From NCBI GenBank assembly GCA_029855935.1, contig JAGSHN010000025.1:147135-211134 (forward strand): a DNA stretch of 64,000 bases. Reading direction: 5' to 3'. Position numbers and translations under genes: made by a program. This DNA comes from Candidatus Thorarchaeota archaeon (GTDB lineage Archaea; Asgardarchaeota; Thorarchaeia; Thorarchaeales; Thorarchaeaceae). A model generated the notes under the pieces. It was not told the origin of the DNA. It did not search any database and was given only the letters and a program-made list of their open reading frames with translations. Of the stretch, positions 19,188 through 32,356 are shown piece by piece (position 1 is the first letter of the stretch; every line of letters starts with the position of its first letter).

Positions 19188-20915
19188 CTAGAAGACGGCA
19201 CGGACAGTGTTCAGTACAAGACCCACGAGATCCCTTGCCCGAGAGACCCTGATGACCGTCGCGCCCGCCTTGGTCAGAAGGGCCATCGACGGAGGATCAG
19301 AGCCCTCATCAAGCCATATGTGGAACACGAACAGGCTATGGCCGCGCTGTGTCAACCTCCTCACGCAGCGGACCATCTCTCCCCAGTTAGAGACTTCAGC
19401 GTCCGTGACCATCAGCACGACGGTCCTGTGCTCTGAGAGCAGACCCATCGTTTCGATTGCCTCGGCGGGAAGGACAGTGCCCTCCCCTTGGTACCTGAGC
19501 AGCACACGTTCGAGCAGGCTTCGTTCCCTCGTCCATCTCGTCTCAATCCAGTCTGAGGAGAAGTTGATGACAGCAACCCTGGACCCGCGACGCAACACAT
19601 AGTCGATTGCGGCAAAGGCGGATAGGAGAGCAAGATGAAATGCTCCCGAGAGCGAGGAGGTCCTGACATTCCAGGTCATCGAGCCACTGGAGTCAAGCAC
19701 AAGCAGAAGGTCTGGGAGGACCTTGGCCTCCGTGTCGGAATAGGACTCTACCCGGTGCCACCTCCGCGTTGATAGGTTCGGTATGAGGACGGGAAATGCC
19801 TGCAACGACTGGACCACATCAAGCTCCTCAATTGGATCACCAATCCGCCATACAATCGGAGCTAGCGGCAGGGCACCAGTGTGGCTACGCTCTCGTATCT
19901 CAAGCCTGACTAGCTCGCGAGCAAGGGCACGATACCAGAAACGGAGCCAGTCACGGCCTGAACCAGTGACCCCGCGCAGTACCATGGCCGCGCGAAAGTC
20001 CTCAAGATTGCCACCACGTTCTCTGATACTCGCAGCAGTGGCCTCAATCTCGGCCTCACTGGCGCGACGCAACGGGTCTGTGCATTCTCTCACACGCTCG
20101 CCGTTGCGAATCTCGACGGGACTGCCCATCACCCTGTCTACATCTTGTGGGACACGAACAACATCCTCCTTGCCCTCACCACGCCACGGCAGGCGCACCA
20201 TCTTGATGCTCTCGCCCGAGCCGCTGCCCGGCAGGCCCTCTTCCCCTGAAGTCCCCCCGAGTCTGGCAATGATCTGAGCAATCTTTTCGACTGCCAAGGG
20301 CCATCTGCGTTCACGATGACGATACTGGCGGAACACCTCCACAATCTCGGAGGCTGCAGCCAAGATGTCTCTACCGAGCTTCACGGACTCCGGAACGGGG
20401 AGACCCCACTGGACTCGGTAGGTCGCCACGATGAGCGACCAGAGGACTGACCGCTGGGCGCCCTTCATTGCGGAATAGTAGACCGAGTGTACGATCCGAT
20501 TGTGGGTCAGACGAGGATACTGCTCAAGAAGTAGGGAGTCGACGACGAGGTCCGCGAACAGGTTACACGCGAACATAGCGGTCTCGTCATTCAGATGTCG
20601 TCGGGCACGGGAGAACATCATCGCACTGGTCACGTTGTCATAAGGACAGGTCAGGTAGTGCTGCAGCTCATGATGGCACACTGACCTGACAAAGGCGAAG
20701 GTCTCTTCGCTCGTCAGATAGTCGGGGACACTAGCGAGGTTGAGATGGACAGTCCACGTCTCGGTGTCGATGTAAAAGTGGCTGGGACGCTCGTCGTCGA
20801 TGTCTATGACAGGGTCAGGGACAGGCGGCGAGTACAGGTCAGCCAGTGCCCGTGACCACGCACGCTCTGCGACCTCTATGATATGAGGCATGCCAGATCT
20901 GCTGTCGGACACCAT
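19188..20915 (-). CDS. VWA-domain protein with an N-terminal HExxH putative metallopeptidase domain
   Basis: HHELQH plus downstream NLFAD; MIDAS elements DSSGS, GEGT and TDAE. Confidence 0.8.
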   Translation of the reverse strand: MVSDSRSGMPHIIEVAERAWSRALADLYSPPVPDPVIDIDDERPSHFYIDTETWTVHLNLASVPDYLTSEETFAFVRSVCHHELQHYLTCPYDNVTSAMMFSRARRHLNDETAMFACNLFADLVVDSLLLEQYPRLTHNRIVHSVYYSAMKGAQRSVLWSLIVATYRVQWGLPVPESVKLGRDILAAASEIVEVFRQYRHRERRWPLAVEKIAQIIARLGGTSGEEGLPGSGSGESIKMVRLPWRGEGKEDVVRVPQDVDRVMGSPVEIRNGERVRECTDPLRRASEAEIEATAASIRERGGNLEDFRAAMVLRGVTGSGRDWLRFWYRALARELVRLEIRERSHTGALPLAPIVWRIGDPIEELDVVQSLQAFPVLIPNLSTRRWHRVESYSDTEAKVLPDLLLVLDSSGSMTWNVRTSSLSGAFHLALLSAFAAIDYVLRRGSRVAVINFSSDWIETRWTRERSLLERVLLRYQGEGTVLPAEAIETMGLLSEHRTVVLMVTDAEVSNWGEMVRCVRRLTQRGHSLFVFHIWLDEGSDPPSMALLTKAGATVIRVSRARDLVGLVLNTVRAVF

Positions 20916-22669
20916 CAACGCCTCGCTACTTGTCCCAGTCCCTCCTCAATTATCCTCCTCAGTCTGATTGCAGGAGTACCACCCGACACCTCAAGAAACA
21001 CGGATGAGTCCGGTGAATCGCCAGTGACATAGATGACCAGGGTCAGTTGATCCATTCGAATGACACGTCGCTTGGGCGGATGTAGGGTCTCCTTTAGGAA
21101 GGGCGTCATCTCGGGGAATGCCATACTGATGGTCGTCCACAGCTCACTCCAACGACGGAAGTCAAGGGTGTACTGCGACAGCGTAAGCCTGTGAAGGGCA
21201 TCCGAGACCCGGCCAATCAGGGCGGCGCGGTTCGGTATTGTAGATGACCGTACAAGTTCCGCATACACCTTTGAGAGCCTCTTGACATCACCTGCAGCAA
21301 TAGCAGCATCAATACGATGCACCATCTTCTCGTACGAGGCCTGTATCATCTTCTTTGCCACAGGGAGATAGTCGAGTCTGACCAGTAGATCGCTCTTGGC
21401 AATCTCCTGGAGTTTCTGGATGTCATCACGAGACCCATCACCCGTCTGTAGGCGGGCCATTATCTTACGGGCTGGCTCCCGGGCCACGAATCGGGCAGTG
21501 GCCAGCTCCACAAGGTGGCACGTGAACTCGTATCTGTCACCATAGAAGGGCGATGCAGCCAGCCGGTCACGTACAAAGCGGGTGCGATGCCAGAAGACGA
21601 GCGGTGCAATCGACTTGACGATGTCCACACTCACTTCATCCGCACCGACAAGCCACGCTAGCGCCTTGCTGTAACGATTCAGGTCCTTTGCAGCCCTGAC
21701 GCTGAGTGGGATGACCACTTTGTTGCATACCGTCTTGGCGATGTTGTAGTGACATCCATCACAGAGTCCCGAGTCAACTGTCAGCTCTCCAGACTGGCTC
21801 TTGTCGACACGCACACAGGCGTCGAACTCCCTCACCAATGACCGTATGTACTCGGAGGCCCCGTGCGATACCGCCATCTTATCCGCAAGATTCCAGATTG
21901 TGAGGAGGTCCTCCTCTGTCAGGATCCCCGGCACCTGCCAGAGCTCGTCGTAGCCGAAGAGCCTCTCATCACGGGTACCCAGGATGATCTCAAGGTCAGA
22001 GATTCGAGGCATTGTTATTGGTACGGCAAGGCCAAACCTGTCGAGAAAGGGTGGCGCCAGCTCAAAGGTCCCCGAGTCGGTTGGATTCATAGTGGCAAAC
22101 AGGCAGTATTCCTCGCATCGGCGCACCTCATCATAGTACTTGAGTTCGCCCTCCGCAAGCATCGACAGGAGTATGTTCTGTGCATGCGGAGTGAGACGAT
22201 TGACCTCATCGACTATTTTCCAGAAGTCCGTTACAAACCGCCGCCAAACAACAACCTCGCGACCCTCCTTCATCAACGGGCCAGGACGAAGCGTCGCCAC
22301 CATCTTCTCCTCGGTCAGCTGTGGGTGTCCACGGAGAATGGCATCCTCGATCTCGGCTATGCTCCGCCCCGTCATCATCCGGCCAAGGAGTTTCACAAGG
22401 GTGGTCTTGCCGCCGCCGTGGCCTCCAACAAGCAGCATCGCAGAGCGAGGGACCAGGGCATTAAGAACACAGCTACCAGCAATGAGCGGCAGTCGAATCG
22501 ACTTCGCACGACCCGCTCCCGCTGGCTGATACTTCACGGTCAGCTCCCCGGAGTGAACGAACAGGCCGTGGCTCTCGACCGTCGTGATGACCTCCATCAC
22601 CTTGCGCCTCAGCTGTTCGTTCCTGCTGACCATTGCGATCACATCGCGTACTCTTATCGGAGTCTCCAT
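20915..22669 (-). CDS. MoxR-like AAA+ ATPase
   Basis: GGHGGGKTT, IVDEVNR, ATMN, LDRF and SVRA motifs; coupled to the VWA gene. Confidence 0.88.
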   Translation of the reverse strand: METPIRVRDVIAMVSRNEQLRRKVMEVITTVESHGLFVHSGELTVKYQPAGAGRAKSIRLPLIAGSCVLNALVPRSAMLLVGGHGGGKTTLVKLLGRMMTGRSIAEIEDAILRGHPQLTEEKMVATLRPGPLMKEGREVVVWRRFVTDFWKIVDEVNRLTPHAQNILLSMLAEGELKYYDEVRRCEEYCLFATMNPTDSGTFELAPPFLDRFGLAVPITMPRISDLEIILGTRDERLFGYDELWQVPGILTEEDLLTIWNLADKMAVSHGASEYIRSLVREFDACVRVDKSQSGELTVDSGLCDGCHYNIAKTVCNKVVIPLSVRAAKDLNRYSKALAWLVGADEVSVDIVKSIAPLVFWHRTRFVRDRLAASPFYGDRYEFTCHLVELATARFVAREPARKIMARLQTGDGSRDDIQKLQEIAKSDLLVRLDYLPVAKKMIQASYEKMVHRIDAAIAAGDVKRLSKVYAELVRSSTIPNRAALIGRVSDALHRLTLSQYTLDFRRWSELWTTISMAFPEMTPFLKETLHPPKRRVIRMDQLTLVIYVTGDSPDSSVFLEVSGGTPAIRLRRIIEEGLGQVARR

Positions 22670-22741: not shown

Positions 22742-23848
22742 ATGCCGGATGAAGGGCAGGTACCTACAGTGGGCGAAGAGACCTCATTTGCTGACGCGAT
22801 AAGGCTGGTGTCGCGGGAGGACATCAGTCCCAGTGGACTAGCACAGCGGTCAGTCGTCGAGATGGCAGAGTCTGTAGCCGAGGTCATTTCTGGCACCCTA
22901 GCCGCACGAGAGCAACTCGAGCAATTGGGCCTCTCCCCATGCACAAGGATACTATTCACGGGCCCCGTAGGAACGGACTTTGAGGACTTTGTCCTCTCTG
23001 TCTGCAGAGAGATGTCGCTGAATCTCGTAAGACTTCGAGTCGAGAGAACATTGCAATACGAGAGAGAGTTTGACACACTTGTTGCAGCAGCACTGGACAC
23101 TGCACGCAGAGAGGCACCAGCCCTCCTGCACATCTCGTCACTGCATCTCTTGAGGGCCGTTGGAGAACGTTCTGAGGTCCTTCTCCGAGAACAGCTGGCA
23201 CAGTCGTCTATGGATAGCCAGTCTCTCGTCGTCATTGTGGGCACCACTCACAGGCCACAGGATCTCGACCCACAGACCCTGCTTGCCTTCGACAGAGTGT
23301 TGTGCGTCGGTCCCCCGGACGGAGAGGACCGGCAGAGTCTGCTCGTCCAGGCCCTTGCGTCACACGAGGACATTGATATTCCTCGTCTCGTAGACCTCAC
23401 CGACGGGTGGTCCTACGCGTCACTCAGACATCTTGTTGCGGCCGTATTGGCAGAGGGCGGAGAGTCGGGCGAGGCGCCATCCATAGACCGCATCGAGAAG
23501 ATGATAGAGGAGGGGCTGTTCGTCCCAGTTCTTGCCACAGGCAGCACAACCGAACTGGAAAAGAGGCTTGTCGGCGGGGGACGGGGGATCACACACGTCA
23601 TTGAGGAGGTGTATCCTGATGACCTCCTCGACCAGCTCTACCTGATGGTCGTTACGGAGGACTATGGGACAGCACAGCAAGTCATCGAGGCCCTAAACGA
23701 GGGACTCCCGCTCTCTGATGAGCAGGTGAGGTTCCTCAACCGTTTTCCGTTTCTCCTCTCAGGAGAGCCCCGTGAGAGGCTCGCCCGTCTGATAAGGGCG
23801 AAGAAGAATAGAGACCGTCTGATGCGCGTGATGGGAAGGGAGGAATGA
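22742..23848 (+). CDS. Catalytically degenerate classic-clade AAA ATPase (CDC48/PAN/Vps4-like fold)
   Basis: ILFTGPVGTDFE, ARREAPALLHISS, GTTHRPQDLDP, FDRVLCVGPPD and TDGWS align with the AAA consensus but lack the Walker A Lys, Walker B acids and Arg fingers. Confidence 0.75.
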   Translation: MPDEGQVPTVGEETSFADAIRLVSREDISPSGLAQRSVVEMAESVAEVISGTLAAREQLEQLGLSPCTRILFTGPVGTDFEDFVLSVCREMSLNLVRLRVERTLQYEREFDTLVAAALDTARREAPALLHISSLHLLRAVGERSEVLLREQLAQSSMDSQSLVVIVGTTHRPQDLDPQTLLAFDRVLCVGPPDGEDRQSLLVQALASHEDIDIPRLVDLTDGWSYASLRHLVAAVLAEGGESGEAPSIDRIEKMIEEGLFVPVLATGSTTELEKRLVGGGRGITHVIEEVYPDDLLDQLYLMVVTEDYGTAQQVIEALNEGLPLSDEQVRFLNRFPFLLSGEPRERLARLIRAKKNRDRLMRVMGREE

Positions 23849-23852
23849 CTGA

Positions 23853-26800
23853 TTGAGCGTGATCGTGAGGTCAATCAGACTCAGGAACTTCATGCCCTTC
23901 GTGGACGAGACAGTCCCGCTCGACCGCGGACTGACAGTCATTGTGGGGAGGAACGGCGCTGGCAAGAGTGCGATACTGCACGGACTGAAGTTCTGCCTGG
24001 GCTCAAACCAGCGAGAGAAACGATTTGGTAGCTGGGAGGGCTTCATCAGATGGGGCGCGGAAGTTGCAGAAGTTGAAGTGACGGTTGAGCATCAGGGTGA
24101 GACGATCGTCTTCGCGCGCAGGATTGGCAAGAAGGGAGTCCCACTGGCCTACATTAACGGCCGAAGGGTCCGTGCATCGGAGCTGCGGCGCGAGGTCGAG
24201 CGCCTCGGTTTCAAGGTTGACAACCCTCTTGTCTTCCTCCCACAGGAACGTGTCATTCAGCTGAGCAGTGCATCAGCAACCGACATCAGAGAGATGGTCG
24301 AGGATGGTACGGGACTCTACAGACTGAGGGACCGGATCCTCCTTCAGGAGACAGAACTGCGTCACGACAGGATGAGATTGGAGGCCGCGCTTCTGGAGGC
24401 CCGCTCCATTCAGGGAGAATTGAAGCTTCTCGAGGGCGACCTCAAGCGCCTGAAGAAGAAGCAGGATCTGCAGAGGACCAGAGAGAGCCTTGAGATCGAG
24501 TTGAAGTGGGCCGAACTCGAACTTGTGGAGAGGAACATCGAGAGAATCGACCAGGAGATTCAGGAAGAGGAGGTCAGCCTAAGACAGGCCAGTGCAAAAG
24601 TCGAGGAGATTGAGAACAAGATAGAGAGTGAGACCCAGACGGCCAAGGCGATCGAGTCGCAGACGCAGCTAATAAGGACCGAACTCGGCCGACTGAGAGA
24701 GCGGCTGGATTCGGAACGAGACCGGTTGAAAAACCTGAAGGAGAGCAACAAGCAGGCTGTGATAGAGCTCGGGGAGATTGACAAGCGCATCAAGAGAGAC
24801 AGAATGGAGATGATGGCGCTACAGAGTGACATCGAGGCGAAGAAGAAGGAGATATGGAACACCACGGAGGAACTCGAGGAACTCAGGGAGAAGGAACAGG
24901 CGGCGAGAGAGGAACAGGAGAGACTTGAGGAGGCGCTAACACGCTACGTCGAGTGGAACACGCGTAGGATGGACATTCGGAGTAGACTGACAGCCGCACG
25001 AGGTCGGCTGAAGGACAGAGAGATAGATCTGAGAGCCTATCGCCAGAGGCTTCAGACAGACAGAGCCGATCTTGAGGAGATTGAGAGACAGTGGAGTGAT
25101 CTGTGGGAGACGCTCGAGACCACAAGCGAAGAGGAACTACTATCTCAAAGGACCGAGACCAACAATAGGATTGAAGAGCTGGCACAGAGGAGGGTGGCAC
25201 ATCTCAGCCGTATCGCTGAGCTGAAGAGGGAACTCGCGTTCACTGAAGAGTTGATAGCAGAGAGGTCAAAACGGATACCGAAGACTGTTCGTGCCCTCAG
25301 GTCTGAGGTAGAGAAGCACGGACTAGAGGCCATCGGTCCTCTCGTAGAGGTCGTGGGCGAGAACGAGGAGATGGCGGGCGCACTGGAGGCTGTACTGCGT
25401 GACCAGCTGGCCTTCGCATTCATAACGACAGACGCTGCGGACTTCCAGCTACTCTGTAGAATACGGGACGAACTTGAGGCGCCTGCACCAGTATTCCTAG
25501 TCGAAGATTCAACAGACGAGCGTGCCAAGGGGGCCCCCGAGATAGGAGGGAGGGAGGGGGTCCTTGGTGATCTGTGGCGGATGGCCGGGGTGACAGAGGA
25601 GCTTGCCCGCCTGCTGCGCAGGAGCATCGGATCGTTCTTGGTAGTCTCTGACGCAGGAGATGCAATGCGCATCGCCCGCACAGCAAGGGTAGCCACCGTC
25701 ACACCTCAAGGCCACGTCTTCATCGTTGGGAATGGTTTCGTCTTGAGCAGGCCCCAGAGTGGGCAGGCTGGACTCCTCTCGACAGCGCCTCTTCGAGCCA
25801 AGAGAGAGGTGCTGAGAAAGCAACTCATCGAAAGCGAACAACAGCTCGCGGAAACAGTCAGAGAGATTGCGAATCTGGAGCGACTGCGCGACGAGCTGAC
25901 CCAGCTTCTCGAGCGCTACGCGGAAAAGGACAGGATATGGGCCAGACGGAGCGAACTCGCAGAGGATATCGAGCGGACCGAGGAGGCCATCCGCAAGATC
26001 GAGGAGGAGATTCTCCCTCTGAGGGAGGAGATTGAAGAACTCGTGTCCGAGCTGAGGAAGATGGATAGCAAGCAGCCTCCTGAGAGGAGCCGGATTCAGG
26101 GCCAGCTCGTTGCCGTGCGTCAGCAGATCGCCAAGCTCGCCTCCGACATCTCCGCACGCAGGGGCCAGGTGGAGCGTGCAAGAGCTATCTTGAGGGCAGA
26201 TCAGGACAAGGTCGGTACACTGGAAGAGAGCATTGCTGCACTGCAGCAGCATCGTGATGAGCTGAAGGAGATTCTCAGGCTGGCTGCCGAACAGTCCGAC
26301 GAGATACTTGAGAACATAGAGGGCCTTGAGAGACGTATAGAGGAACTCTCTTCGAAGGAGGAGTCCCTGTCGCAGGAGCTGAGCGAACACCAGACAAAGC
26401 TGTACGCTCTGAACAGGGAGCTCGCGGAACACAACGTCCGTAGTCAGGACCTCATCAGAGAGGTGCGGCGCAAACGGCTACAACTGGGAAATCTTGAGAC
26501 TCGCAGGAAGGAGATACAGAGTCAGGTCGCCTCAATCGCACGACCAGCCCGGGTGAGACCCCTTGCAGATGTCACCCGCGAGCTGGAGAGCGTGACCTCG
26601 CGGTTGGACGAGTACAGGGATGTGGATGATGACCTTCTTCGCGTCAGGTCCGAGCTTGCCCAGCGACTGGCGGAGGTCGAGGCCAAGGCCGACCAGATAC
26701 GTGACGAGATGTCAGAGGCTGAGAGCACGCTGGAGGACATCAAGGCGCAGTACTACAGTGAGATGGCAAAGGTGCTGGAGCGTCTCGGCAGAGACATCAA

Positions 26801-27290
26801 CACTATTCTGAGGACTGTCGAGCTGGAAGGGGAGGTACGTCTGGAGATGGTCAAACAGGACGAGGAGTACGGGGTCGAGTTCCTGACGAGAATCAAGGAT
26901 GGTACGTTCAAGGGCGTGAGACCGGGATCCGGCGGAGAGCGCACCCTGATAACAATTGCACTGATCATCGCGCTACAGCAGCTGAATCCAGCCCCGATAT
27001 ACTTCCTCGATGAGGCGGACATGGCATTGGATGCTGTCTATGCGGACCGCGTCGGCCGACTGTTCAAGGCGGCTGCGGCCGACAAGCAGATTGTCATTCT
27101 GACACCGCTCCGGAGCGTCAAACTTCTCAAGCACGCAGACACTCTTCTGGGAGTTGCAACACCTGACGGTCGCACCCCAGTCATCATAGAGGCCCCAGAG
27201 GAGGACAAGAACGAAGAACAGAACGAGAGGAAAGAGGGAGATGCCAAGAGGGAGGGAGGCGACGATGACGATGGGAGGCAAGAGGAATGA
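23853..27290 (+). CDS. smc: SMC protein, Smc5/6-like
   Basis: GRNGAGKS, DNPLVFLPQERV Q-loop, two long coiled coils around a central hinge (AIGPL...ALEAVL), SGGER, FLDEAD and QIVILTP. Confidence 0.93.
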   Translation: MSVIVRSIRLRNFMPFVDETVPLDRGLTVIVGRNGAGKSAILHGLKFCLGSNQREKRFGSWEGFIRWGAEVAEVEVTVEHQGETIVFARRIGKKGVPLAYINGRRVRASELRREVERLGFKVDNPLVFLPQERVIQLSSASATDIREMVEDGTGLYRLRDRILLQETELRHDRMRLEAALLEARSIQGELKLLEGDLKRLKKKQDLQRTRESLEIELKWAELELVERNIERIDQEIQEEEVSLRQASAKVEEIENKIESETQTAKAIESQTQLIRTELGRLRERLDSERDRLKNLKESNKQAVIELGEIDKRIKRDRMEMMALQSDIEAKKKEIWNTTEELEELREKEQAAREEQERLEEALTRYVEWNTRRMDIRSRLTAARGRLKDREIDLRAYRQRLQTDRADLEEIERQWSDLWETLETTSEEELLSQRTETNNRIEELAQRRVAHLSRIAELKRELAFTEELIAERSKRIPKTVRALRSEVEKHGLEAIGPLVEVVGENEEMAGALEAVLRDQLAFAFITTDAADFQLLCRIRDELEAPAPVFLVEDSTDERAKGAPEIGGREGVLGDLWRMAGVTEELARLLRRSIGSFLVVSDAGDAMRIARTARVATVTPQGHVFIVGNGFVLSRPQSGQAGLLSTAPLRAKREVLRKQLIESEQQLAETVREIANLERLRDELTQLLERYAEKDRIWARRSELAEDIERTEEAIRKIEEEILPLREEIEELVSELRKMDSKQPPERSRIQGQLVAVRQQIAKLASDISARRGQVERARAILRADQDKVGTLEESIAALQQHRDELKEILRLAAEQSDEILENIEGLERRIEELSSKEESLSQELSEHQTKLYALNRELAEHNVRSQDLIREVRRKRLQLGNLETRRKEIQSQVASIARPARVRPLADVTRELESVTSRLDEYRDVDDDLLRVRSELAQRLAEVEAKADQIRDEMSEAESTLEDIKAQYYSEMAKVLERLGRDINTILRTVELEGEVRLEMVKQDEEYGVEFLTRIKDGTFKGVRPGSGGERTLITIALIIALQQLNPAPIYFLDEADMALDAVYADRVGRLFKAAAADKQIVILTPLRSVKLLKHADTLLGVATPDGRTPVIIEAPEEDKNEEQNERKEGDAKREGGDDDDGRQEE

Positions 27291-28003
27291 TCAGGGACGC
27301 ACTCAGGAGTAGGGTGAGACGCCTTGCCCGGAGTGTCGAGTCCGGAGAGGTCGACCCCCTCGAAGTTGAACTCGCGAGATTGTACAGAGAGCTGCAGGAA
27401 CTCTCGCAACAACTCCCAGTGAAGATGGAGATCGATGAGGCACTGAACGAACTCCTCAGTGCAAAGGTGGGTCGGGTGCAGGAACTGGCACGCGCCGTGG
27501 TGGACCCAGAACTGCTGGTAGACCGTGTGGCACACATGTCAGCCAGAGAGCTTGCCCGCCTCTTGAGGCTGAAGCGACCTCTGTTGGTCCCGGGGCTGTC
27601 GCATCAGCATATGCATCAGGCAGCGGAACGACTCAGACTTAGAGAACCGAGGAGGCAGTGGGACTTTGGGCGGGTCGAGCCAGTCGAACGGCCGACAAGG
27701 ATGGACCTGAGGCTTGAGCCGGAGATCACGGAGGAGGAGGTTGAAGAGTTCCTCACCTCAGTCCCAGTGGGAGAGCCACTACGACTGAGTGACCTCCTGC
27801 GGAGCGAGGACGTGGAGGAGTTCCTGCGTAGGTTCCTGATGGTGGTTCTTCTTGTGGCCAGCGGCGACCTTCAGTACGACGCGACCGCCAGAACCCTGAC
27901 CCGAGTAGAGAGGAGTCCGGACAGTACTTCTTCGCGTGAGCAACAACAGGTCGCTGGCCAGCCAGCGGACCGAGGGAGGAGATGGAGGAGGCGGTCCCGA
28001 TGA
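27287..28003 (+). CDS. scpA: Kleisin (ScpA/Nse4-like)
   Basis: N-terminal GEVDPLEVELARL (ScpA-type DP motif); C-terminal winged-helix FLMVVLLVASGDL; ATGA overlap with smc. Confidence 0.75.
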   Translation: MIRDALRSRVRRLARSVESGEVDPLEVELARLYRELQELSQQLPVKMEIDEALNELLSAKVGRVQELARAVVDPELLVDRVAHMSARELARLLRLKRPLLVPGLSHQHMHQAAERLRLREPRRQWDFGRVEPVERPTRMDLRLEPEITEEEVEEFLTSVPVGEPLRLSDLLRSEDVEEFLRRFLMVVLLVASGDLQYDATARTLTRVERSPDSTSSREQQQVAGQPADRGRRWRRRSR

Positions 28004-28521
28004 ACAACGAGTTCTCTGTCTTGATGAGCGCACTGACGAGGCCCGGAAACCCCCCGGGGGCAAATATCTCAGACCTGATCGAGGTGCTTGGCTATCCAGT
28101 CGACCCGGGACGGACAATCGTATTCAGGCTGCTCGCCGGGCTGGATCGCATCCTGCATCAGGTGGGCCTGAGGATAGCGTTCAATCCGGTCGAAGATGTC
28201 TTCTTCATCGATGTCACTGCAAGGGGCAAGGAGGACAGGACAAGACTCCCCGACCGCCTTGCGGCTACACTGCTTGCCGTGATAGCACTGTCCTATCGGG
28301 AGCGCGACTGGGTCCAGGTGAGCCAAGTCAGACGCGTCCGCAGAAAGACGATGAGATCGGTCCGTGCGGACCTCCGTGAACTCCAGGTCCTCGGGTACGT
28401 AGAGTTCAGTGACGACGGGACCCGCGTCAGACCGGGTATTCGTGTGTCCTTCGAGGTCGACCACGATGAGTTCTTCCGTGCGCTGAGCAAGGGAAAGTAC
28501 GGCGCGAGCAGTGACGAATAG
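28000..28521 (+). CDS. KITE tandem winged-helix protein (ScpB/Nse1-Nse3-like)
   Basis: Two wHTH-like halves (ISDLIEVLG...LDRILHQVGLRI; DLRELQVLGYVE...RPGIR); ATGA overlap with the kleisin; GGAGGAG RBS. Confidence 0.7.
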   Translation: MNNEFSVLMSALTRPGNPPGANISDLIEVLGYPVDPGRTIVFRLLAGLDRILHQVGLRIAFNPVEDVFFIDVTARGKEDRTRLPDRLAATLLAVIALSYRERDWVQVSQVRRVRRKTMRSVRADLRELQVLGYVEFSDDGTRVRPGIRVSFEVDHDEFFRALSKGKYGASSDE

Positions 28522-28599: not shown

Positions 28600-28959
28600 A
28601 TGTCGCACAGGAAAGCATTGAGATTCGCAAAGACTGTCTGTCCCATCTGCGGTAGCAAAGAGGTTGCCCGTGATGACCTGAAGGGCGACCTTCTGTGCAC
28701 GAACTGTGGCCACATAATCACAAGACATGAGACCCGGGCCGTTGGAAAGTTCGAGATCGCGCAGCATCTGAAACGCGAGGGCAAGCTCACGTTCGAGCAG
28801 CTCAAAGAGATCACAAAGTCATCGGACGACCGACTGTTTGGCGTGCTGCAGAGCATGCTCAGCATGGGGCTCATTGACGAACTGGGTGGCAAGTATCACC
28901 TGACCAAGCGTGGTCAGCGCTGGTACCGCCAGAGACTGGGACAAGAATGGGGATATTGA
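28600..28959 (+). CDS. TFIIB-type Zn-ribbon plus winged-helix protein
   Basis: CPICGSKEVARDDLKGDLLCTNCGHII followed by LTFEQL...GLIDELGGKYHLTKRG. Confidence 0.75.
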   Translation: MSHRKALRFAKTVCPICGSKEVARDDLKGDLLCTNCGHIITRHETRAVGKFEIAQHLKREGKLTFEQLKEITKSSDDRLFGVLQSMLSMGLIDELGGKYHLTKRGQRWYRQRLGQEWGY

Positions 28960-29316: not shown

Positions 29317-29748
29317 ATGGCTCTTGTTCCGGAGGACAACATTTTGAGCACGAGCAGCAAGGAACCCGGACGCATAGAATGGGAGAAAGATGTCGTCAGC
29401 GATATGATCAACCTGTACTGCAGAAAGAGACACAATACCCCCAAGGGTGAGCTCTGCAGGGAATGCGCCGACCTCCTCTCGTACTCCCTAGAACGACTTG
29501 ACCGATGCAGATACGGTGAGGAGAAACCAACGTGCAAGAACTGTCCTACTCACTGCTACCGTCCGGTGGAGCGCGAGAGAATCAGGGCAGTGATGAGATT
29601 CAGTGGTCTGCGGTTGTTCCTCAGGGCTCCGGTAAAATGGATGGTCCACGCTTTTCACGATAGAGTAAGACTGAGAGCAATCGAACAGAGAAAAATAGAG
29701 GGAGAGGCGGGTGGCCAAGAGGACCACCCATCCTCTGGGTCTAGCTGA
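29317..29748 (+). CDS. YgbA / nitrous-oxide-stimulated-promoter family protein
   Basis: MINLYC...H, LCxxC, RLDRC, KPTCKNCPTHCY and VMRFSG motifs. Confidence 0.85.
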   Translation: MALVPEDNILSTSSKEPGRIEWEKDVVSDMINLYCRKRHNTPKGELCRECADLLSYSLERLDRCRYGEEKPTCKNCPTHCYRPVERERIRAVMRFSGLRLFLRAPVKWMVHAFHDRVRLRAIEQRKIEGEAGGQEDHPSSGSS

Positions 29749-32074
29749 CCGTGACCTGTGCTACCTCTTCTTCAACTGGCGCAGTGAAGTCCGCAGGTTT
29801 GCGGCTCTTGGCAATCGCCCACGCCGTCACCAGCATCAGGACCAGCGCCGCGCCGAGGAGAGCAATGTCAGTCTGCAGACTCTGCCCGAACTGGTACTGT
29901 ACCAGCACGGGTGCAGCTATGAGCGAGATCAGGTTGATGACCTTGATCATCGGGTTCAGAGCAGGTCCAGCAGTGTCCTTCAGCGGGTCGCCGACAGTAT
30001 CACCGACAACACTTGACTTGTGACGCTCAGAGCCCTTGCCAGTGTTAGCGGCAGGATTGCTCTCTTCGTCCTCAATGGACTTCTTAGCATTGTCCCAAGC
30101 CCCACCAGTGTTGGCCATAAAGACAGCAAGAAGTTGGCCAGACAGAATCGCTCCCGCGAGGAAGCCTCCAAGAGCCTCCACGTTGAGCAGAATACCGACC
30201 ACAAGCGGGATGGATATCGTCATCACGGCCAGGCTGACAAGCTCCTTCTGTGCGGCGGCAGTGGAGATTCCGACCGCACGTCCATAGTCGGGCTTTGTCG
30301 TGCCCTCAAGCACACCAGGAATTCTGAACTGGCGTCTGACCTCCTGGACCATCTGACCCGCAGCACGTGACACAGCTTTGATGTTCAGCGCTGCGAACAG
30401 CCACGGAACAGCGCCACCGACAAGCAGGCCAGTGAACACGAGTGGCTCATTGAGCCTGAGAAAAGCGTACCCGGTGATGTTGACGAGATTCGTGTCCACA
30501 GTGTAGCTGTAGAAGAGGCTCACCGCAGCAATCACAGCCGAGGCAATCGCGACACCCTTAGTGATAGCCTTGGTGGTGTTGCCAACAGCATCGAGGTCGG
30601 CCATTATCTGCCGGGCTTCCTTGTCAAAGTCGCCTGGAGAGAGTTCACCGATGCCATTTGCGTTGTCGCTGATGGGACCGTAGGAGTCCATCGCGACATT
30701 GTTGCCAGTGTGAGAGAGCATTCCAATACCGACCAGCGAGATGGCATAGAGGACGTACAGAGCGCCATCAGCAGCATAGAGTGCTGTTGCTATGACAAAG
30801 CTGGTCACGATTGCCATCAGGGCGGCCACCGTGGACTCGTACCCAGAGGCCAAGCCCTGAAGGATGACTGTGGCCGTGCCAGTGTCGGATGCCTTGACAA
30901 TCTCCTGCACTGGAGCCTTGTACGGAGAGGTGAAGTAGCTCGTTATCGGGTTGAACGACACAGCGAGCATCACACCTGTCGCAATCAGAGCTCCGAGCCG
31001 CCAGTCACCAGCATACACCATACTGATGACGAAGGCGGACAGGATTGTGATTGCACTCGATACCTCGTACGACATGAACATTGCGTGCTCAGCGTCGTCC
31101 GTCTTCCAGACCGCGACCATGAAGGTCCCGACCATCGAGGAGATCACACCAATGGCACGAATCACCAGCGGGAAGACAATCCAGAACATCGGGGCGCCGC
31201 CAGCGAGTCCGCCCATAGCGTGGTAGATGGCCAGACCCAGAATCAGAGAGGAAACAATAGTTACCTCGTAACTCTCGAATATGTCGGCGGCCATTCCGGC
31301 ACAGTCGCCAACGTTGTCTCCGACGAGATCCGCTATGACGGCCGCGTTTCGGGGGTCGTCCTCTGGGAGGCCCTGCTCGACCTTACCGACAAGGTCGGCA
31401 CCCACATCAGCAGCCTTTGTGTAGATGCCTCCGCCGACTCTCATGAACAGAGCGAGGAGCGTGCCACCGAGGCCGAAGCCCAGGAGCGCATCAGGCGCTG
31501 CAAGGCCAAAGAAGATGAAGATGGACGTACCACCTAGAAGGCCAAGACCATCAGTGAGCATACCGGTGAAGGTGCCACCATGATACGCAATCTCAAGGGC
31601 ATGATTGAACCGGTTCTCACCCTCGCGAGTCGCCTGAGCCACCCTCACGCTGGACTCAACCGCAATCCTCATTCCAAGCTGGCCGACAATGAGCGAGAAA
31701 CTCGCGCCGAGGATGAATGCGCATGTGCGGCCCACGGCGACAATGAATCGCACATAGTCCGGGTTGTTGCCAAAGACCTCGATTGCCTCCGGAGTCGGCT
31801 GGACTATGTAGACGCTCAGAAAGAGAAAGGCGGTGAGTACAACAAGCGTGGGGACGATTGACCTGAGTTGCTTGTTCAGATATGAGAGAGCACCTTCCTT
31901 GATGGCACCCCACACAGCCTGCATCTGCTCTGTGCCCTTGGGCTTTGCCTTGACGCCCTGCCAAAGCCAGTGTGCGTACACAAGGGAGATTATCGCTGCA
32001 ACGATGACGAAGAGTAGCATTCCCTGTTCCAGCAGTGTGAAGTGATGAAGGAACGTGTCGAATAGTCCTTGCAT
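29741..32074 (-). CDS. hppA: Membrane-bound ion-translocating pyrophosphatase, predicted K+-independent H+-PPase
   Basis: GGGIYTKAADVGADLVGK, EDDPRN, DLVGDNVGD, GNTTKA and GDTVGDPLKDTAGP motifs. Confidence 0.96.
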   Translation of the reverse strand: MQGLFDTFLHHFTLLEQGMLLFVIVAAIISLVYAHWLWQGVKAKPKGTEQMQAVWGAIKEGALSYLNKQLRSIVPTLVVLTAFLFLSVYIVQPTPEAIEVFGNNPDYVRFIVAVGRTCAFILGASFSLIVGQLGMRIAVESSVRVAQATREGENRFNHALEIAYHGGTFTGMLTDGLGLLGGTSIFIFFGLAAPDALLGFGLGGTLLALFMRVGGGIYTKAADVGADLVGKVEQGLPEDDPRNAAVIADLVGDNVGDCAGMAADIFESYEVTIVSSLILGLAIYHAMGGLAGGAPMFWIVFPLVIRAIGVISSMVGTFMVAVWKTDDAEHAMFMSYEVSSAITILSAFVISMVYAGDWRLGALIATGVMLAVSFNPITSYFTSPYKAPVQEIVKASDTGTATVILQGLASGYESTVAALMAIVTSFVIATALYAADGALYVLYAISLVGIGMLSHTGNNVAMDSYGPISDNANGIGELSPGDFDKEARQIMADLDAVGNTTKAITKGVAIASAVIAAVSLFYSYTVDTNLVNITGYAFLRLNEPLVFTGLLVGGAVPWLFAALNIKAVSRAAGQMVQEVRRQFRIPGVLEGTTKPDYGRAVGISTAAAQKELVSLAVMTISIPLVVGILLNVEALGGFLAGAILSGQLLAVFMANTGGAWDNAKKSIEDEESNPAANTGKGSERHKSSVVGDTVGDPLKDTAGPALNPMIKVINLISLIAAPVLVQYQFGQSLQTDIALLGAALVLMLVTAWAIAKSRKPADFTAPVEEEVAQVTVS

Positions 32075-32356
32075 GTTGATATCACCACATCTGGGGGTCA
32101 GGGCCGTGAAACCTACTCCATGCTCTTGTTTCAGGTCCTGAATTCCCCTTTGCACTGTGCTGTCCCGCAAAGACAAGGCCCTTTAAGCATTGCCTAGACA
32201 GCCATCAAGCAACGGGATACGCAATGGGTGCTGGTTGTGAACAGACTGCAGGACTCCCGCCCAGAGCGACAATGACAGACTACGGTCCTGCACCCCGGCC
32301 CGCGAATCTATTGTGCCACTGCGACCTAGAGGAGCCCAGGACGTGAGAAGGAAAGA

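Follow-up and report, generated by a model that had tools for sequence, protein, structure and literature searches.

We analyzed a window of 64,000 nucleotides (nt) from a Candidatus Thorarchaeota archaeon (contig JAGSHN010000025.1, positions 147,135 to 211,134; here, "the window" means this whole stretch) and found that one of its genes, which we call pseudo-AAA, encodes a Cdc48-type AAA protein that has lost its catalytic residues and heads the operon of a second SMC complex. The gene evolves under purifying selection, stands in the same place before the SMC, kleisin, and kite genes across deeply separated Asgard lineages, and is kept or lost together with this operon. We consider it probable, at roughly two chances in three, that the protein is a non-catalytic fourth subunit of this second Asgard SMC complex, tethered to the kite and acting as a regulator or adaptor, and that it derives from an ATP-driven remodeler. 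The window matches one sequencing data set, probably its source metagenome, which comes from a hydrothermal vent, and no RNA data set was listed for it. An earlier note, made from the letters of the window, had described a dead AAA domain at the head of an SMC operon and suggested that it had been repurposed as a loader or adaptor.

A Cdc48-type AAA fold that has lost its catalytic motifs

The open reading frame of pseudo-AAA is free of stop codons and is translated into 368 amino acids (aa) from its first ATG. The GTG at 22769 is the likelier start, because the public gene call (359 aa) begins there and the orthologs, whose own starts read MGEE..., agree with it. The gene and its parts are as follows (residues are those of the 368-aa translation).

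22742..23848, + strand: pseudo-AAA gene; 359 aa with the probable GTG start at 22769, 368 aa with ATG 22742
22919..23509, + strand: AAA alpha/beta subdomain (residues 60-190) and lid (residues 194-256), from the secondary structure and confidence of the AlphaFold2 model
22961..22984, + strand: Walker A remnant GPVGTDFE (residues 74-81)
23123..23140, + strand: Walker B remnant LLHISS (residues 128-133)
23525..23614, + strand: flexible, disordered linker (residues 262-291), with a predicted local distance difference test score (pLDDT) below 50
23615..23839, + strand: C-terminal three-helix domain that defines the family and is the predicted kite-docking module (residues 292-366), pLDDT 88 when folded alone

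Pfam, phmmer, and Foldseek all recovered the classic-clade AAA fold, i.e., an alpha/beta subdomain followed by a helical lid. More specifically, Pfam AAA (PF00004) matched residues 71-189 (E = 1.2e-7; 32.7 bits against a cut-off of 21.2), and the closest sequence matches in the PDB were Cdc48, VAT, and p97, chiefly their D2 domain (E = 6e-21 with phmmer/HMMER). In addition, the AlphaFold model of the protein (pLDDT 74.7) matched the D2 domain of p97 in Foldseek (E = 3e-13). NCBIfam returned similarity to Cdc48, PAN, and CdvC, in each case below threshold. Both the Cdc48/Vps4-type scaffold and the helical C-terminal extension described in the earlier note are thus present.

We called the catalytic motifs from a residue-by-residue HMMER alignment to Cdc48, and this alignment upheld every loss that had been read from the window before. 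Walker A has Asp79 where the lysine of the Cdc48 motif GPPGTGKT should be, and Walker B has SS in place of the DE found in the Cdc48 motifs FLDE and FIDE. Sensor 1 reads TTHRP compared with ATNRP in Cdc48, so that asparagine is replaced by histidine in the window and by threonine or serine in the orthologs. The second region of homology reads LLAFDR instead of RPGRxD, and both arginine fingers are gone. Pore loop 1 is likewise altered (QYEREFD versus MWYGESE), at a site that is unconserved among the orthologs.

We extended the comparison to 33 orthologs, taken from the genomes that represent the species of the window's own GTDB family (hereafter, the Thor family). Walker A carries G(T/S)D in 32 of them, and the arginine fingers are absent from all 33. 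At the Walker B site, most of the orthologs have an acidic residue followed by arginine or lysine (ER, EK, or DR). In P-loop NTPases, the positions of the Walker A lysine and the Walker B glutamate lie on opposite sides of the phosphate site. Judging from the alignment, these two positions appear to have, in effect, exchanged charge in the Thor orthologs. Since the Walker A aspartate and the Walker B arginine or lysine would face each other across the phosphate site, we infer that a salt bridge may fill the empty nucleotide pocket.

Purifying selection on pseudo-AAA

Seven database homologs from metagenome-assembled genomes (MAGs) of Thorarchaeota and Hermodarchaeota share 32-41% identity with the pseudo-AAA of the window. 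We estimated the ratio of nonsynonymous to synonymous substitution rates (dN/dS) among the 33 Thor-family orthologs as Nei-Gojobori medians over pairs with 60-97% identity. The whole protein is under purifying selection, with a median of 0.078, and the values for its parts were 0.093 for the AAA domain, 0.23 for the linker, which is the least constrained part, and 0.037 for the C-terminal domain, which is the most constrained. The low dN/dS (~0.08) rules out gene decay and, together with the fixation of the lysine-to-aspartate exchange in 32 of the 33 orthologs, agrees with the earlier proposal that the intact frame reflects repurposing. No close ortholog has intact Walker motifs. Such motifs occur only in distant orthologs of ~20% identity, and they therefore mark the origin of the dead form rather than contradict it.

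Linkage to a second SMC operon across Asgard archaea

Pseudo-AAA is followed on the same strand by three genes.

23853..27290, + strand: second SMC paralog, 1145 aa, with a hinge (Pfam SMC_N and SMC_hinge) and a TTG start
27287..28003, + strand: kleisin-like protein, 238 aa, found in the same position in all loci; its gene overlaps the stop codon of the SMC gene
28000..28521, + strand: kite subunit, 173 aa, tandem winged-helix, overlapping the kleisin stop codon; predicted docking partner of the pseudo-AAA tail

The stop codon of pseudo-AAA lies 4 nt ahead of the TTG start of the SMC gene, with GGAGG just 5' of the TTG, and the two genes are probably coupled in translation. The SMC protein scores far under the cut-offs of the canonical SMC equivalogs. 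A canonical operon encoding SMC (1234 aa), ScpA (297 aa), and ScpB (196 aa) is found on another contig of the same genome (C14:82277-87038); therefore, the window holds a second SMC system, and the organism has two complete ones. PDB scores proved uninformative as to whether the second SMC belongs with SMC5/6 or with condensin and cohesin, as Smc, Smc3, Smc5, and Smc6 all matched it alike. The kleisin-like protein has no Pfam match, and its profile reached yeast Nse4 in the PDB only weakly (E = 0.19). One member of the kite family matches ScpB in Pfam (E = 1.2e-6) and another matches DUF4194, and the family has no direct match to MAGE or Nse1. A transitive link is given by the Asgard kite profile, which recovers kites of Thermoproteota that have weak MAGE/Nse1 matches and lie near an Nse4_C kleisin.

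The gene order AAA-SMC-kleisin-kite was present in every Asgard lineage found to have this kite, and none of the orthologs found was unlinked from the SMC gene. It occurs in five Thor/Hermod loci. A sister family within the same taxonomic order also has it, with an AAA protein of 339 aa whose Walker A reads SLPGEPIQ (genome G311). The same gene order is found in Candidatus Freyarchaeum and its Jordarchaeia relatives, with an AAA gene of 459 aa that overlaps the SMC start, and in one Helarchaeales MAG and one MAG labeled 'Odinarchaeota'. Finally, it recurs in two Loki-type families (f21 and f22), whose upstream genes encode 438 and 475 aa. Neither gene has a Pfam match, and hhalign aligned both to the family profile with 99% probability (E = 8e-18) over a region that runs from the sensor-1 strand and takes in the lid and the C-terminal domain; in one Loki-type homolog, the Walker A site reads GSD. 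The C-terminal domain, used alone as a profile, also recovered two more Loki-type genomes that were outside the profile build (G138 and G170), each with an SMC head immediately 3' of the match.

We also searched 400 Asgard genomes with the family profile. Full-length members were found only in the family of the window (~66 of 85 genomes) and in its sister family, and the matches elsewhere were to Cdc48 alone. Within the Thor family, the kleisin profile gave the same pattern of presence. Both AAA and kleisin are missing from 14 genomes of this family, including six of the seven genomes of one genus, one of which is 96% complete. In the genomes in which AAA and kleisin disagree, the gene lies at or near a contig end, as confirmed for G331 and G376, which suggests that the other discordant cases are contig-end artifacts as well. 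This co-occurrence with the SMC clade had been a question of the earlier note, and the answer is that the AAA gene is kept and lost together with the operon. Eight further Asgard families were examined through one high-quality genome each, and none of these genomes has the tail domain or a strong match to the kite. One hit of the family profile (G043, E = 3e-29) was rejected, as it is an ordinary active AAA protein beside a gene of the metallo-beta-lactamase fold.

Among 401 Thermoproteota genomes, the tail profile gave no convincing match, and no AAA gene was found in three Thermoproteota loci with Nse-like kites. Restriction of the AAA gene to Asgard archaea is provisional, because the kite profile is insensitive in Thermoproteota. 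Of two marginal tail-domain matches in this phylum (E = 4e-4), one was checked and rejected, being a coiled-coil DUF7121 protein beside orotidine monophosphate decarboxylase. Two operon types of Thermoproteota are unlike the Asgard operon. One (genome G400, L151:2379-5489, - strand) encodes a short SMC_N protein of 590 aa, a protein of 241 aa, and a kite of 202 aa that matches Nse1/MAGE weakly, and the other (genome G660, L152:7112-10402, + strand) encodes a 257-aa Nse4_C kleisin, uncharacterized proteins of 186 and 362 aa, and a 202-aa kite; neither includes an AAA gene.

A series from active to inactive AAA in one operon slot

The AAA proteins that occupy this slot differ in how much of the catalytic machinery they retain. 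The ortholog from the 'Odinarchaeota'-labeled MAG matches the D2 domain of Cdc48 with E = 2e-70 and has an intact Walker A, a Walker B with DE, the sensor-1 asparagine, both arginines, and the pore loop YLG, the last of which is intact in this ortholog only. Jordarchaeia/Freyarchaeum proteins retain Walker A and one arginine, and their Walker B reads DN. The Helarchaeales protein retains Walker A and sensor 1, with DP at Walker B and no arginine finger. The Thor proteins retain no catalytic motif at all, and in the Loki-type proteins, the N-subdomain is unrecognizable. The C-terminal domain is common to all of these members.

The simplest reading of these sequences would be that an active, single-module Cdc48-like ATPase had already joined the operon and that its motor was subsequently lost, either independently or progressively. 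A more far-reaching version, which we regard as possible yet doubtful, is that a Cdc48-like unfoldase, tethered to the kite, was an ancestral part of the SMC5/6-related Asgard complex and spent ATP on opening, unloading, or recycling the ring closed by the kleisin. In most lineages, Thor and Loki among them, this unfoldase would later have been frozen into a structural regulatory subunit.

Two further features were observed in the Jordarchaeia/Freyarchaeum operons. Their SMC paralog (835 aa; L050:8070-10577, + strand) keeps the hinge and has far shorter coiled-coil arms, and their AAA protein has an extra N-terminal coiled coil of ~100 aa.

The C-terminal domain and its predicted docking on the kite

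The C-terminal domain (~80 residues) is the most conserved part of pseudo-AAA. Alignments revealed a family motif, Y-P-x-D-F-x-x-Q-L-Y ... G-x-P-L-S ... P-F-L-L ... A-K-K, and the profile of the domain is specific in that it recovers only SMC-linked Asgard AAA proteins. The fold had no PDB match at E <= 0.001, and an Atlas feature search likewise brought up no usable hit. A MIM/MIT-type peptide motif was looked for by eye in the C-terminal helix and rejected, as its spacing departs from the MIM1 consensus.

We predicted the structure of a complex of one kleisin, two kites, and one AAA protein, each supplied as an alignment, in three runs. The AAA tail was placed on the kite with an interaction prediction score from aligned errors (ipSAE) of 0.71 (0.70-0.72 across the runs), compared with 0.00, 0.00, and 0.23 for the controls. 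The runs had at least 50% of their contacts in common, and the pLDDT of the partners was at least 68. All confident contacts join AAA residues 290-305, 333-337, and 357-367 with kite residues 38-68, 95-105, and 144-155. On the AAA side, these ranges overlap the conserved tail motifs (YPDD...YLM, part of PFLL, and the terminal RL.R.MGR), and on the kite side, they include the region of the invariant residues G56, L57, and P63.

Genomic neighborhood

The genes flanking the operon in the window are listed below.

19188-20918, - strand: VWA protein (Pfam), 576 aa, paired with the MoxR gene
20915-22669, - strand: MoxR-type AAA_5 ATPase (Pfam), 584 aa, divergent from the SMC operon
28600..28959, + strand: TFIIB-type Zn-ribbon protein (Pfam Zn_Ribbon_TF), stand-alone, 3' of the kite gene
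29741-32176, - strand: membrane H+-pyrophosphatase (Pfam, E = 6e-227), 811 aa, a downstream neighbor kept in Thor and Hermod loci

MoxR and VWA genes lie near the operon in all Thor/Hermod loci, MoxR alone is found in the sister family, and both are absent from the Freyarchaeum, 'Odinarchaeota', and Loki-type loci. The Zn-ribbon gene recurs downstream in three Thor loci (L001, L002, and L003) and is at most a candidate member of the system. The conserved H+-pyrophosphatase neighbor argues for stable chromosomal synteny.

Other lineages have neighbors of their own. In the Freyarchaeum locus, the stretch 5' of the AAA-SMC operon (L050:2832-6350) encodes a 246-aa protein with weak matches to SprT/M48-like metalloproteases and to RING fingers, and a ThiF (E1-like) gene lies just 5' of the AAA gene. 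This ubiquitin-system, Wss1/SPRTN-like flavor beside a Cdc48-like AAA gene and an SMC5/6-related operon may be a coincidence. In one Loki-type locus (genome G149, L059:1488-3545, + strand), a gene for an Eco57I/TaqI-type restriction-modification methylase lies just 5' of the degenerate AAA gene.

Proposed role and alternative explanations

Given these observations, we propose that pseudo-AAA supplies the SMC complex with a Cdc48-D2-like AAA module that would neither bind nor hydrolyze ATP and that lacks arginine fingers and a pore loop. The protein would be co-translated with the SMC, and its linker of ~30 residues would tie the AAA module to the three-helix tail, for which the prediction gives the kite's first winged helix as the docking site. 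Such docking would put the inert AAA body beside the kleisin-kite base of the ring. In that position, the body would most likely be no motor but a stoichiometric regulator or adaptor that acts on head/kleisin engagement or on recruitment. The protein would descend from a Cdc48-like ATP-driven remodeler that was already tethered to the SMC complex, and one lineage still has a fully intact version in the same operon slot.

Several points weigh against this proposal. The docking on the kite rests on a structural model, which supports it and falls short of proof, and the ipSAE mark, which 58 of 80 solved complexes and 2 of 110 mismatched pairs attained, was calibrated on single-chain pairs with the tool's own alignments and is therefore only a rough guide here. 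When the kleisin was replaced, the score fell to 0.23; therefore, the docking may depend on the assembled kleisin-kite module or may be less robust than 0.71 implies. As the prediction covered kleisin, kites, and AAA, the main contact of pseudo-AAA might instead be with the SMC heads or arms. The role of the AAA body is one that we infer, and it could lie in the control of head engagement, in the recruitment of factors, or in the oligomerization of the complex. The copy in the window is itself unusually divergent, with only 31-38% identity to congeners and, in the comparison with genomes G312-G314 of the same genus, 34-39% for AAA and kleisin, and it is an outlier in that it alone has SS at Walker B. 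Moreover, the operon is patchy among Asgard families, a distribution that would also fit an accessory, non-housekeeping system.

Among the alternatives, the one that fares best, though we consider it unlikely, is that pseudo-AAA links the complex to a working ATPase, for which Cdc48 and the MoxR-VWA pair are the candidates, such that remodeling of the SMC ring was outsourced rather than lost. The nearest relatives of pseudo-AAA are indeed Cdc48 D2 domains, and inactive AAA modules are well known to serve in oligomerization or as partner modules, as with the D2 domain of NSF and the D1 domains of Pex1/Pex6. The distribution of the divergent MoxR AAA_5 gene also fits, as it is found near every Thor/Hermod and sister-family locus, where the AAA is dead, and is missing from the Freyarchaeum and 'Odinarchaeota' loci, where Walker A is intact. 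However, the Loki-type loci have a still more degenerate AAA and no MoxR neighbor, other genes intervene between MoxR and the operon in some Thor loci, and pseudo-AAA has lost the arginine fingers, which one would expect a dead partner to have kept for donation.

It is improbable that the four genes form an SMC-based system for defense or for the surveillance of extrachromosomal DNA, comparable to Wadjet, Lamassu, or restriction by eukaryotic SMC5/6, with the AAA-derived protein as a sensor or effector adaptor. Eukaryotic SMC5/6 does restrict extrachromosomal DNA (10.1101/2024.01.07.573240), and a defense role would be in line with the patchiness among Asgard families, the loss of the operon in one genus (six of seven genomes), the rapid sequence divergence even within a genus, and the methylase gene, of type IIG restriction-modification, 5' of one Loki-type locus. 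On the other hand, PADLOC detected only generic similarity to ABC/SMC heads and AAA proteins: its models had no match to the kleisin, kite, MoxR, or VWA proteins, no JetA, JetB, or JetD partner and no LmuA- or LmuC-type partner was present, and no nuclease gene was found. A PADLOC match of the intact ortholog to IetA (E = 4e-66) was set aside as generic AAA similarity that provides no evidence of defense. The operon is also single-copy, the loci read have no signs of mobile elements, and its synteny with housekeeping neighbors, the H+-pyrophosphatase among them, holds throughout the Thor family.

We think it very improbable that pseudo-AAA still binds nucleotide in a non-canonical manner and works as a non-hydrolyzing switch. 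The glycine-rich P-loop backbone G-x-x-G-T is kept and conserved, the AAA domain is strongly constrained, and the intermediate lineages, with an intact Walker A and a crippled Walker B (DN or DP), have the classic configuration of a domain that binds ATP without hydrolyzing it. Nevertheless, aspartate has taken the place of the phosphate-binding lysine in nearly all orthologs, sensor 1 and the arginine fingers are absent, and the arginine or lysine found at the catalytic glutamate site in most orthologs would be expected, from P-loop chemistry, to form a salt bridge that occupies the site in place of a nucleotide.

Finally, the idea that the adjacency is a historical accident, with an unrelated pseudo-AAA merely having its promoter in common with the SMC, can appeal to the fact that the association is known from sequence and modeling alone, yet it is highly improbable in view of a linkage that has held across lineages of only ~20% identity with wholly different neighbors, the loss of AAA together with the operon, the stop-start coupling of the two genes, and a predicted kite docking with clean controls.

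Comparison with known systems

Two earlier reports (PMC8665677, Yoshinaga & Inagaki 2021; 10.1101/2024.01.07.573240) propose that TACK and Asgard archaea have a second SMC-kleisin-kite operon, termed 'SMC5/6-related', and the latter describes three subunits without using the term 'AAA'. The operon in the window resembles these archaeal operons in having a second SMC, a kleisin, and a kite beside canonical SMC-ScpAB; the Asgard loci differ in adding a fourth, AAA-derived gene at the head of the operon in every lineage examined. Our literature search found no paper that joins Asgard, SMC5, and AAA, and none in which an AAA protein is connected with the SMC5/6-related operon of archaea, in keeping with the statement of the earlier note that no SMC complex with such a subunit was known. 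Thus, the SMC-kleisin-kite trio was known before, whereas the putative AAA-derived fourth subunit, its candidate kite-docking domain, and the active-to-dead series are not described in the literature that we searched.

SMC5/6 is the least understood of the eukaryotic SMC complexes, and the Asgard/TACK operon has been put forward as a guide to what it did ancestrally. A fourth, conserved subunit, which evolutionary surveys have not reported, would provide a new parts list for the ancestral complex, and the tail domain and the kite offer a concrete, testable interface. In addition, the series from intact to dead AAA proteins in one operon slot amounts to a natural experiment on the action of AAA motors on SMC rings and on the route from motor to pseudoenzyme. 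The large single-contig genomes of the Loki-type families f21 and f22 may include cultured strains, and if so, work in vivo would be within reach. If the ancestral unfoldase were real, it would mean that AAA-driven turnover of SMC rings took place in prokaryotes, in the lineage ancestral to eukaryotes.

With respect to the Cdc48/p97/VAT family, pseudo-AAA shares the fold of the D2 domain, i.e., the alpha/beta subdomain and the lid, and has its best sequence and structure matches there. Unlike these proteins, it has only one AAA module, lacks both the N domain and D1, and carries the three-helix tail in addition.

The earlier note had likened the presumed adaptor role to that of Nse5/6 or the HAWK proteins. 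The adaptor part of this suggestion finds support in the predicted docking of the tail on the kite, whereas the likeness can only be functional, because the folds are unrelated: Nse5/Nse6 and HAWK proteins are alpha-solenoid or HEAT proteins, while pseudo-AAA combines an AAA fold with a three-helix bundle, and its predicted contact is with the kite. Pfam and PDB searches of pseudo-AAA revealed no homology to Nse5/6 or HAWK. A possible analogy is that all of these are accessory modulators that are neither SMC nor kleisin.

The NSF D2 domain, the D1 domains of Pex1/Pex6, and LAP1, which acts with Torsin, are cases in which the AAA fold has been selected for after the loss of hydrolysis. These domains still bind nucleotide or donate an arginine finger, whereas pseudo-AAA has an aspartate in its P-loop and no arginine finger and is linked to an SMC operon.

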